NCBI GenBank assembly: GCA_013239625.1
Contig: MU054466.1
Coordinates: 310,001-374,000 of the forward strand
Direction: 5' to 3'
DNA length: 64,000 bases
Source of the DNA: Lama guanicoe
Taxonomy: Eukaryota
Part shown: positions 42,661-45,600 of the stretch, piece by piece
How positions within the stretch are numbered: position 1 is the first letter of the stretch
Layout of the letters: each line of letters opens with the position of its first letter
Position numbers and translations under genes: made by a program
The notes under the pieces: generated by a model
What the model saw: only the letters and a program-made list of their open reading frames with translations
What the model was told of the DNA's origin: nothing
Databases searched by the model: none

Positions 42661-45600
42661 ATGGCGGACAAAATGGATATGTCTCTGGACGACATCATTA
42701 AGCTGAACCGGAGCCAGCGAGGCGGCCGCGGCGGGGGTAGGGGCCGCGGCCGGGCCGGCTCCCAGGGTGGCCGTGGCGGCGGAGCGCAGGCCGCCGCGCG
42801 AGTGAACCGAGGCGGCGGGCCCATCCGGAACCGGCCTGCTATCGCCCGCGGCGCGGCGGGCGGCGGCGGCAGAAACCGGCCGGCGCCCTACAGCAGAGTG
42901 AGTGCGGAGGACGGGCGGCGGGCCCTGGGCGGCGGGGGAGCGGGCCGGCGGGCGGCACGGGGATGGCCGGCCCCGGGCCGCGGGGGCGCGGACGCCGGGC
43001 GGGCGGGGGGAGGTCGCGCAGCGGCCCGGCCCGGAGGTGGAGACCCTGCCGGCCTTTGTCTCGGCCGGGCGCCGGGCCTCGTGGCGCAAGGGGGCCGAGG
43101 GTACGTCGGCGCGGCCGCCCCGGCGGCGGGAAGTTAGTTGGAGGAAACCGAGAAGTTGCAGGACGTGAGGCCCCGGCGGTCGGCTGCGGCCCGGCGCGGG
43201 CGGGAAGCGGGACTGCGAGCCTCTCTCCTCGCGTTCCTCCGGGGCCGCAGTGGGGGAAGGTCTTGCGGTGGCCGTGAGGGCGAGGGCGAGCCTCGGCCTG
43301 AGACTCACGGGTCTTTTTCTGTTGTTTCCTTTTCTTTAGCCGAAACAACTCCCTGACAAATGGCAACACGACCTTTTCGACAGCGGTTTTGGGGGTGGTG
43401 CCGGCGTGGAGACCGGTGGGAAACTGCTGGTATCCAATCTGGATTTTGGAGTGTCCGACGCCGATATTCAGGTAAGCGACGGAGCTTCTCGGCGAATAGT
43501 TAACCCTGCACGGAACTGGTTTTGTTTGGGACGTGGCCCTGAATCCCCACCCACCTTAGGACAGCTAGCCCTCCCAGGCACCCAAGGGCTAGCCACCGTC
43601 CCCTGTAAGGGCTGCAGGAATGCAAAGCAGAGGTGAGGCTACAGTTGAAAGCCCCACTAGCGGGTCAGTTTGTGCTGGAAAAACAGGCCCCCAGTCTAGT
43701 GTGAGGAGCCGCTGCTCTTCATTACTGAGACGTCTTCTGTGGATGAAAGTCTGCTGTCAGAAAGTCTCTCTAACGGAAGACTGGTGGACGTGTGTGGTTC
43801 CTGTATTGCTGGAAGAGCTAGGCTATTTGTTTTCCTTATTTTGTGCTTGTTTCGGTGGTTTATTGGAGGAGAAAGCTCTTCCTCTACAGACCTGACAAAG
43901 CACAGAAGCAGGATGGTGCTGGCGTCTCTCTGGCTCCTTCTGCCTTAAGCCCTGTGTGTTATAGAGAACGTCGTGCCCTGTTTTCTCCCTCGTCCTCGTT
44001 CCTTTGGGTCTTGTTAGTGATACGATTCTCAAACTCATCTTTGGTTGAAGCTTCTTTCTTTTCTATTCTTTTTTTTTCTTCTCACCCCCCCCCTTTTTTT
44101 GTATGAACCCCAAAGGCGCTTAAACTTGTGTTCTGGCTAAGTAATAACATTTGGGGGTCAGTCTTGGAGATGGCTGGGTCAGGGTGCTGGGCCTTCCAGG
44201 GTTCAACTTTCCAGAGCCCCATTGTTTTACTTGACCGTGGGAGGACAGAGCAAGGCCGGTGAGCACTCACAGTGTCTCAACACTTTTTTTAAGGTGGTTT
44301 CTGGCATCCACTGGAAACCGCTTTTGGTGAACTCCACTTCCCGCTGTGTGCCTGCGGCCGGAGTAGCCCCACACTCTGGGTTCCCTCTCCAACTCCCAGC
44401 CTGCCTGAGGTCAGGGCAGTTTCCATGGCAGCGCTTGGCTTCAGACTTTGCGGCAGGCTTGAGTAGGAGGAGAGGGAAAGGTGAGCCAGAATCTGCCCTG
44501 GGGGAGGGGCTGGGTCAGGGCTCCCGAGTCAGCGGGCCCTTGGAGCTGGTCCACAAGTGGTTAGTCCCTTGCTCTGTGATCTTGGCCTTTGCTGCTTCTT
44601 GGCGCAGCCCTTGGGTGTGTTGTAAATTTTCCTCTGGTGAAGAAGATAGCGATTTAATTTTGTGCCCTTCACTGGTGGGCTTTGCGCTCCTATACTTGCA
44701 TCCTGGTACAGATGGAGGTCCCCAGGTCGGCAGGAGCCCTCGGGCCCGGCTGCCCCTGGAATGGCTGTCCCGTCTGCCCTGTCCCATCCCACCCCCCAGG
44801 TCCCACTACCATGGCCCTGCCCCTCACACGTATGTCTGCCTCCCAGGGAAACACCCCAGAGCAGCTCACACTCCCAGGGAGTGTCCCTGGGCTGCCAGGA
44901 GGAAAATCGCTTGCCTGACTGCTGTTCTTTCTGACTCTCAGGAGCTCTTTGCTGAATTCGGGACTCTGAAGAAGGCAGCTGTGCACTACGACCGCTCTGG
45001 CCGCAGCTTAGGAACAGCAGACGTGCACTTTGAGCGGAAGGCAGATGCGCTAAAAGCTATGAAACAGTACAATGGCGTACCCCTGGATGGTGCGTGTGGC
45101 AGTGGACCCAGGATGGCTGCGGGGCTGTGGCTGGGTTGTGGGGTCGGCTGGTCCCATCCCTGCAGGAGGGGCCCTCTGCCGGAGGATGCTCTGTGCTCCC
45201 CCTTGTCTCCTCTGCGTTGCCACCTCGTGCTGTCCGCACGCCTGGACCGACCCCTGTGCACCCCCATCCAGTGGGCCCCGTCCCTCCCCCCTTCAACTCC
45301 TTCTGGAAGGTTCACTTGTGTGAAACCTTCTCAGAACCACCATAGCAGACCTGTGAGTGTGGGGCTGTAGTCGTAAAGACAGGTACTTTTCTGCTCATGA
45401 GCACCTCGGACACCTGACAGACACCCGCCTAAAGTGGACGGAGGAGTGAGGGGGCCCTAGTGGGGTTGGTGTTGGCGCCGGCTCCTTCTCCCGTCGGCGC
45501 TTCCAGGCCACTGCCCTCGTGTGGGTGCCATGGCGCGGGTGGTCTCAGAGCCCTCTGGTGGTAGCGGCCCTTTCATGTTCCCTGCGCAGGCCGCCCCATG

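Follow-up and report, generated by a model that had tools for sequence, protein, structure and literature searches.

A short hairpin-bearing sequence shared by a presumed ALYREF intron and a site 6.5 kb away in Lama guanicoe: probably a templated micro-duplication

How did one short, structured sequence come to stand twice, in unrelated surroundings, within a few kilobases of the guanaco genome? The question was raised by an earlier note on a window of 64,000 nt from Lama guanicoe (contig MU054466.1, positions 310,001 to 374,000), i.e. the whole stretch of DNA analysed here. The note had described two copies in the same orientation, 6.5 kb apart and differing by five transitions and one T, and had offered two readings: a local templated copy, or an uncatalogued retroposon or small RNA. 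Alignment and self-BLAST bore out the pair with its coordinates, orientation, spacing and differences, and of the two readings the local templated copy is supported, whereas the tests run here lend no support to a new retroposon or small RNA. We consider it probable that the pair is a scar of copying at the DNA level, left by a single templated insertion that was primed by microhomology and drew on a donor close by. The features concerned are listed in Table 1.

Table 1. Features of the window discussed in the text (position 1 is the first letter of the window)
Feature	Position	Strand	Remarks
Copy A with its 5-bp direct repeats	44280-44375	+	In ALYREF intron 2; element proper 44280-44372
Copy B	50815-50908	+	Between ALYREF and the next CpG island; element proper 50815-50906
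Hairpin in A	44291-44324	+	14 pairs, 4 of them G-U; 6-nt loop
Hairpin in B	50825-50858	+	15 pairs, 3 of them G-U; at most 8 consecutive Watson-Crick pairs; 4-nt loop
Left junction of A	44270-44290	+	About 14 nt imperfectly similar to 50805-50818, then T7
Right junction of A	44371-44375	+	The 5-mer recurs here; 2 exact bases in common with the B sequence (3 of 4)
ALYREF intron 2, host of copy A	43472-44941	+	GT-AG ends; stop-free 256-aa reading frame
Acceptor-like AG ending at 44293 with consensus donor 44480	44294-44480	+	Putative 187-nt frameshifting exon
Acceptor-like AG ending at 44399 with consensus donor 44480	44400-44480	+	Putative 81-nt exon with stop at codon 3
Left flank of B	49600-50845	-	Approximate ends; runs into first 30 nt of element; presumably an old L1MC-type 3' UTR
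Right half and right flank of B	50860-51243	+	Presumably the 3' half of a MER21-type LTR; AATAAA at 50976 and TGTCA end near 51243 as weak signs
Decayed LINE-1 ORF2 relic	51615-52721	+	0.7 kb right of B; many stops and frameshifts
tRNA-Ala-derived SINE 1	53285-53417	-	Head 53342-53414; called tRNA by Rfam and ARAGORN
tRNA-Ala-derived SINE 2	41352-41473	-	Head about 41405-41473

The two copies are 92-93 nt long, lie on the same strand 6,534 bp apart (with the stem start as anchor) and are not in tandem. They agree at 83 of 88 nt, and whichever served as donor is still intact. All five differences, which fall in an 82-nt core, are transitions (44310/50844, 44320/50854, 44334/50868, 44342/50876 and 44362/50896 in A/B), and seven T in A correspond to six in B. 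Self-BLAST of the window at E<=1e-3 returned two non-self pairs, namely A/B (E 9e-33) and two tRNA-derived SINEs. No third copy was found in the window; an nhmmer search with a two-copy profile listed 17 rows up to E 100, the next match after the pair having E 1.0. Three of the five changes, including both of those in the stem, hit CpG positions, of which the core has 10 (Fisher p 0.012). If all three are CpG losses, each copy has lost some, but gains are also possible. The remaining changes amount to 2/82 non-CpG sites, or 2.4% (95% range 0.3-8.8%), and at an assumed rate of 2.2e-9 this non-CpG divergence would place the duplication roughly 5.5 Myr ago (range 0.7-20).

A single locus placed twice by the assembler would also yield such a pair, and the window indeed contains five gaps of N, one of which (46088-46333) lies between the copies. 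However, six differences separate A from B, and since the five substitutions are without exception transitions (P 0.004 under unbiased error) and show a bias towards CpG, they are unlike sequencing error despite the gaps. Moreover, the flanks consist of different sequence and no gap comes closer to A than 1.7 kb, making an assembly artefact extremely unlikely. The gap between the copies begins 70 nt past the ALYREF stop codon and probably covers the end of the 3' UTR; the remaining four are found at 5883, 10618, 15394 and 16855. A segmental duplication was ruled out, as the flanks diverge beyond about 14 nt on the left and 3 nt on the right.

The junctions are more informative about how the sequence was copied. 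The motif ACACT, previously reported on both sides of copy A, is present at 44280-44284 and 44371-44375. The same 5-mer also occurs at the left end of B, from which it follows that the apparent 5-bp target duplication of A can be read as microhomology used twice; copy B has direct repeats of its own, of 7 bp with one mismatch, at its two ends. The likeness between A and B continues for about 14 nt past the T run, with the four adjacent bases identical, and the microhomology comprises 5 exact bases on the left (12 identities in 15 columns when extended) and 2 exact bases on the right (3/4). Against 2,870 random pairs, the similarity of the left flanks has P 0.003, 0.014 and 0.049 at 14, 20 and 30 nt, where the 14-nt length was picked post hoc and its P is generous; the same test found nothing beyond chance for the right flanks (P 0.64, 0.27 and 0.10). 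A 5-bp repeat at both ends is encountered in 4.6% of random intervals within 2 nt and in 31% within 8 nt, and at this chance rate the junction repeats are weak evidence for either side. The shared sequence beyond the A run of the minus strand carries more weight: it indicates that the run was copied and not added, as independent insertions would differ after the tail. None of this polarises the event. The length bookkeeping fits both directions (net gain of 91 nt at A or of 90 nt at B), GC and CpG content do not tell them apart, and the junctions are symmetric as well.

Under the templated insertion that we favour, DNA breakage or stalling at one site in an ancestral germ line would have left an end that annealed by a few bases to the other site, 6.5 kb off. 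About 90 nt would then have been synthesised before another short match allowed the strand to switch back to its original template. With the same short motif at both ends of the copied stretch, the product would take on the look of a 5-bp target duplication. The hairpin and the T run would have belonged to the donor and been carried along in the copy, and both copies would subsequently have drifted, mostly at CpG sites.

Events of a comparable kind are documented in the human germ line. In its available text, PMC8421209 gives 103 and 99 germline templated insertions of at least 25 bp in two individuals, with microhomology at 138/155 and 135/148 junctions, and PMC5110952, as far as its available text goes, describes microhomology-flanked templated insertions as common in humans. 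With the MMB-TI/MMBIR-like insertions (PMC8421209, available text), the pair shares a short insert whose template lies close by, junctions with microhomology or microhomeology, and the nature of a germline variant. In contrast, the templates in that source lie at most 100 bp away and are often inverted or quasi-palindromic, whereas the present pair is direct, 6.5 kb apart and diverged by 6%; as templates were searched there within 100 bp only, donors at 6.5 kb are not documented in its available text. The class 2 TSIP of PMC5110952 (available text) likewise resemble copy A in size (73-414 bp in the experimental range), in the intact donor, in microhomology and in having neither poly(A) signal nor added tail, but their donors are distant, the proposed intermediate is RNA and target duplications are absent, while A has an apparent one of 5 bp. 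Class 1 TSIP, according to the same text, require insertion at TTTT/A together with a poly(A) signal and a tail of 10-40 added A. Although copy A is flanked by a direct repeat of at least 5 bp that could pass for the target duplication of class 1 TSIP and L1-mobilised retrocopies, these three features are absent here. Excision followed by reinsertion as microDNA was also considered; the donor is intact.

Could the element nevertheless be an uncatalogued short retroposon, or a retroposed small RNA, made from a minus-strand transcript with an A tail? Its G-rich start, the GTTCA motif, the A6/7 run and the end repeats of both copies give it this appearance; the CpG-site changes are split between the copies, as if both had come from a common master; and it has no counterpart among Rfam families. 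It is also short enough for a SINE (<1 kb, interspersed), with 92-93 nt and two non-tandem copies. The definition in SINEBase (PMC3531059, available text) asks in addition for at least 100 copies and for a 60-nt match of 60% identity or more to tRNA, 5S or 7SL RNA, with A and B boxes as an indication only. Simple tRNA SINEs such as ID, vic-1 and DAS-I, as presented in the same text, are similar in length (about 90 nt) and in the A run at one end. However, the element has no tRNA-like head and no A box above background level, and its A run is only 6-7 nt long and templated.

The window provides its own positive controls. It contains two tRNA-Ala-derived SINEs, 80% alike over 60 nt, both simple, with A-rich tails and flanking repeats. 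Their tail regions span 57-60 nt with 51-65% A, and the flanking repeats measure 8 bp with one mismatch and 11-14 bp with one or two. The A box is exact in both SINEs and the B box in SINE 1. We take them to resemble the camelid vic-1 family, which PMC3531059 lists as a simple SINE of camels, its available text giving no sequence.

Measured against these controls, the element looks different. The tRNA-Ala SINE head showed no similarity to it on the four strands (P 0.28-0.97), while the second SINE, as positive control, beat 500/500 shuffles. A scan with the general A- and B-box patterns of Pol III promoters yielded best matches with two mismatches each. Among 1,942 random strands, 1,921 equalled or surpassed the A-box match and 1,731 the B-box match. 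The B box of the second real SINE likewise has two mismatches, so that the B-box test alone excludes nothing. GTTCA is present in 162 of 2,344 random 93-nt strands. None of 11 poly(A) hexamers was detected in the element, and its A run of 6-7 nt is common to both copies; a TTTT/A insertion site is absent, the flanks at both sites being G/T- and C/A-rich. CpG content of the element is not above the local background, and the minus strand, which would be the SINE strand, folds like background (z +0.43 and -1.38).

Searches of Rfam pointed in the same direction. Over the whole window at gathering score, the only match was a tRNA-like SINE and the element had none, in agreement with the previous remark that it is not a recognised tRNA, 7SL, Y, vault or snRNA. 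With an E-value limit instead (E<=10), seven matches appeared around A (best E 0.23) and three around B (best E 1.3), all far below their gathering scores and none to tRNA, 5S or SRP models; the segment 48200-51600 gave no match at E<=1. ARAGORN found only the tRNA-like head at 53342-53414. The mir-1255 family (RF00994) has a similar stem, scoring 16.3 bits (E 1.3) over 30/67 model positions against a gathering score of 63, and was taken as a chance match.

The closeness of the copies bears on this question too. In a model with a 2-Gb genome, a size assumed from the camelid figures in the available text of PMC8605555, a random neighbour within 6.5 kb is expected with P 0.0007, 0.007, 0.06 and 0.48 for families of 100, 1,000, 10,000 and 100,000 copies. 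A retroposon family would therefore need about 10,000 copies or more to account for the distance between A and B, whereas local copying predicts it. A family that large would presumably be catalogued; on the other hand, the SINE table of PMC8605555, in the part available, lists almost only MIRs, so catalogues can miss families. Taken together with the missing match in Rfam, the lack of a tRNA-like head, Pol III boxes at background level, the templated A run and the absence of covariation between the two copies, this makes a new retroposon or small RNA distinctly unlikely. Its retroposon-like looks, it appears, are reproduced by ordinary copying during DNA repair.

Microbial or vector origin was rejected, as no convincing plasmid, phage or GTDB match was obtained. 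Copy B gave two partial matches to plasmids (about 30% cover, E 0.08 and 0.9) and none to phages; B with its flanks matched neither plasmids nor phages, and no exact 25-mer was shared with GTDB genomes, all of these searches being silent on mammalian copy number. A bacterial promoter and terminator scan of the element, a method ill-suited to a mammal, returned nothing.

The surroundings of B give a hint as to which copy was the donor. The 1.2 kb to its left is presumably a minus-strand L1MC-type 3' UTR reaching about 30 nt into the element, and a MER21-type LTR presumably contributed, with its 3' half, the right half and right flank of B. Should these assignments be right, the join between two old repeats is original to B, and A was copied from there. 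Further to the right, the LINE-1 relic matched L1 ORF2p chains in two frames (E 8.7e-12 and 5.6e-16, with stops as X) and had no match to L1 ORF2p in the third; of short L1 ORF pieces tested alone, one was without match and one had E 0.047. This relic places B within repeat-derived intergenic DNA. The available text of PMC5753468 contains the family names L1MC and MER21 and no sequence. The copying most likely ran from B into ALYREF intron 2, a direction that hinges on the presumed identity of the repeats around B. The mosaic at 49600-51243 presumably has the 3' arm of the hairpin at the L1MC/MER21 join, and the hairpin itself may be an older fold-back scar.

The opposite direction had been suggested by the earlier note, which in one of its readings saw the source in an intronic RNA structure of ALYREF, and it could be realised by RNA-templated break repair, with a piece of ALYREF intron 2 pre-mRNA reverse-transcribed to fill a break 6.5 kb downstream. 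The intron holding A is transcribed, its sense strand is the one on which the hairpin folds, and all of the G-U/mismatch asymmetry favours the + strand, which is the ALYREF sense strand; B has 7-bp repeats at its ends; and the class 2 insertions, with microhomology but without poly(A), were proposed to derive from RNA (PMC5110952, available text). Nevertheless, an RNA patch does not explain a site just 6.5 kb away, the donors in that text being distant. The symmetric junctions lend such a source no support, and the old repeats that presumably run through B's junctions would point the other way. We regard this route as quite improbable.

As for the hairpin, the earlier description of a + strand stem of 15 bp with G-U pairs in B and a larger loop in A holds (Table 1). 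The structure is real but modest: the + strand folds with z -1.86 and -2.24 in the two copies, where 10 and 5 of 200 shuffles were equally stable. It might be a functional RNA structure under selection, hiding for instance a cryptic splice acceptor of ALYREF intron 2. Consistent with this are the z values and the fact that four of the five changes, placed on A's fold, are one-sided and keep pairing via G-U (one breaks a pair), as well as the T7-AAG site of copy A, which ranks 5 of 103 intron-2 AGs by pyrimidine content and is followed by the consensus donor. However, at least four of five random transitions would be tolerated with P 0.51-0.64, and the U-A to U-G stem change pointed out previously is one of the CpG changes. 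None of the 27 pairs of A's fold was changed on both sides, in a test of low power with two sequences and five changes. Furthermore, 28/302 and 10/352 GC-matched windows are as stable as the element, a 15-pair stem was also found in 1/10 shuffled windows, an unrelated 15-pair hairpin lies nearby, and the AG is buried in the stem. Selection on the structure is accordingly without evidence, two sequences giving little power, and we hold this explanation to be very unlikely.

The gene hosting copy A, which we take to be ALYREF from the earlier note and from its protein, was modelled with six exons (42661-46017), GT-AG introns and a stop-free 256-aa frame. Among the papers listed on ALYREF and its intron 2, no title or abstract opening deals with such an element. 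As a speculation, and an unlikely one, the copied hairpin could have been recruited to regulate ALYREF within a single lineage of mammals or, less likely still, the element could be a retroposed small RNA that is low in copy number and belongs to no known class. In the regulatory case, the T run and AG would form a new, stem-hidden acceptor paired with the donor at 44480, and the resulting frameshifting 187-nt exon would tune ALYREF, an mRNA export factor. Importance would be greater if a high copy number revealed a mobile element that had been overlooked, or if ALYREF splicing were altered by the insert. According to the templated-insertion reading, the pair is of little import: one more fixed templated micro-duplication, probably neutral, a repair scar mimicking a SINE that could serve at most as a clean presence/absence marker for dating lineages.

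Two minor observations concern structure in the same region. The unrelated 15-pair hairpin is located at 40701-40734 (+); 3 of its pairs are G-U, its loop measures 4 nt, and it has no Rfam match at gathering score. By eye, a 12-nt inverted match was noticed between the right end of copy A (44365-44376) and ALYREF intron 3 (45357-45368), probably due to chance.
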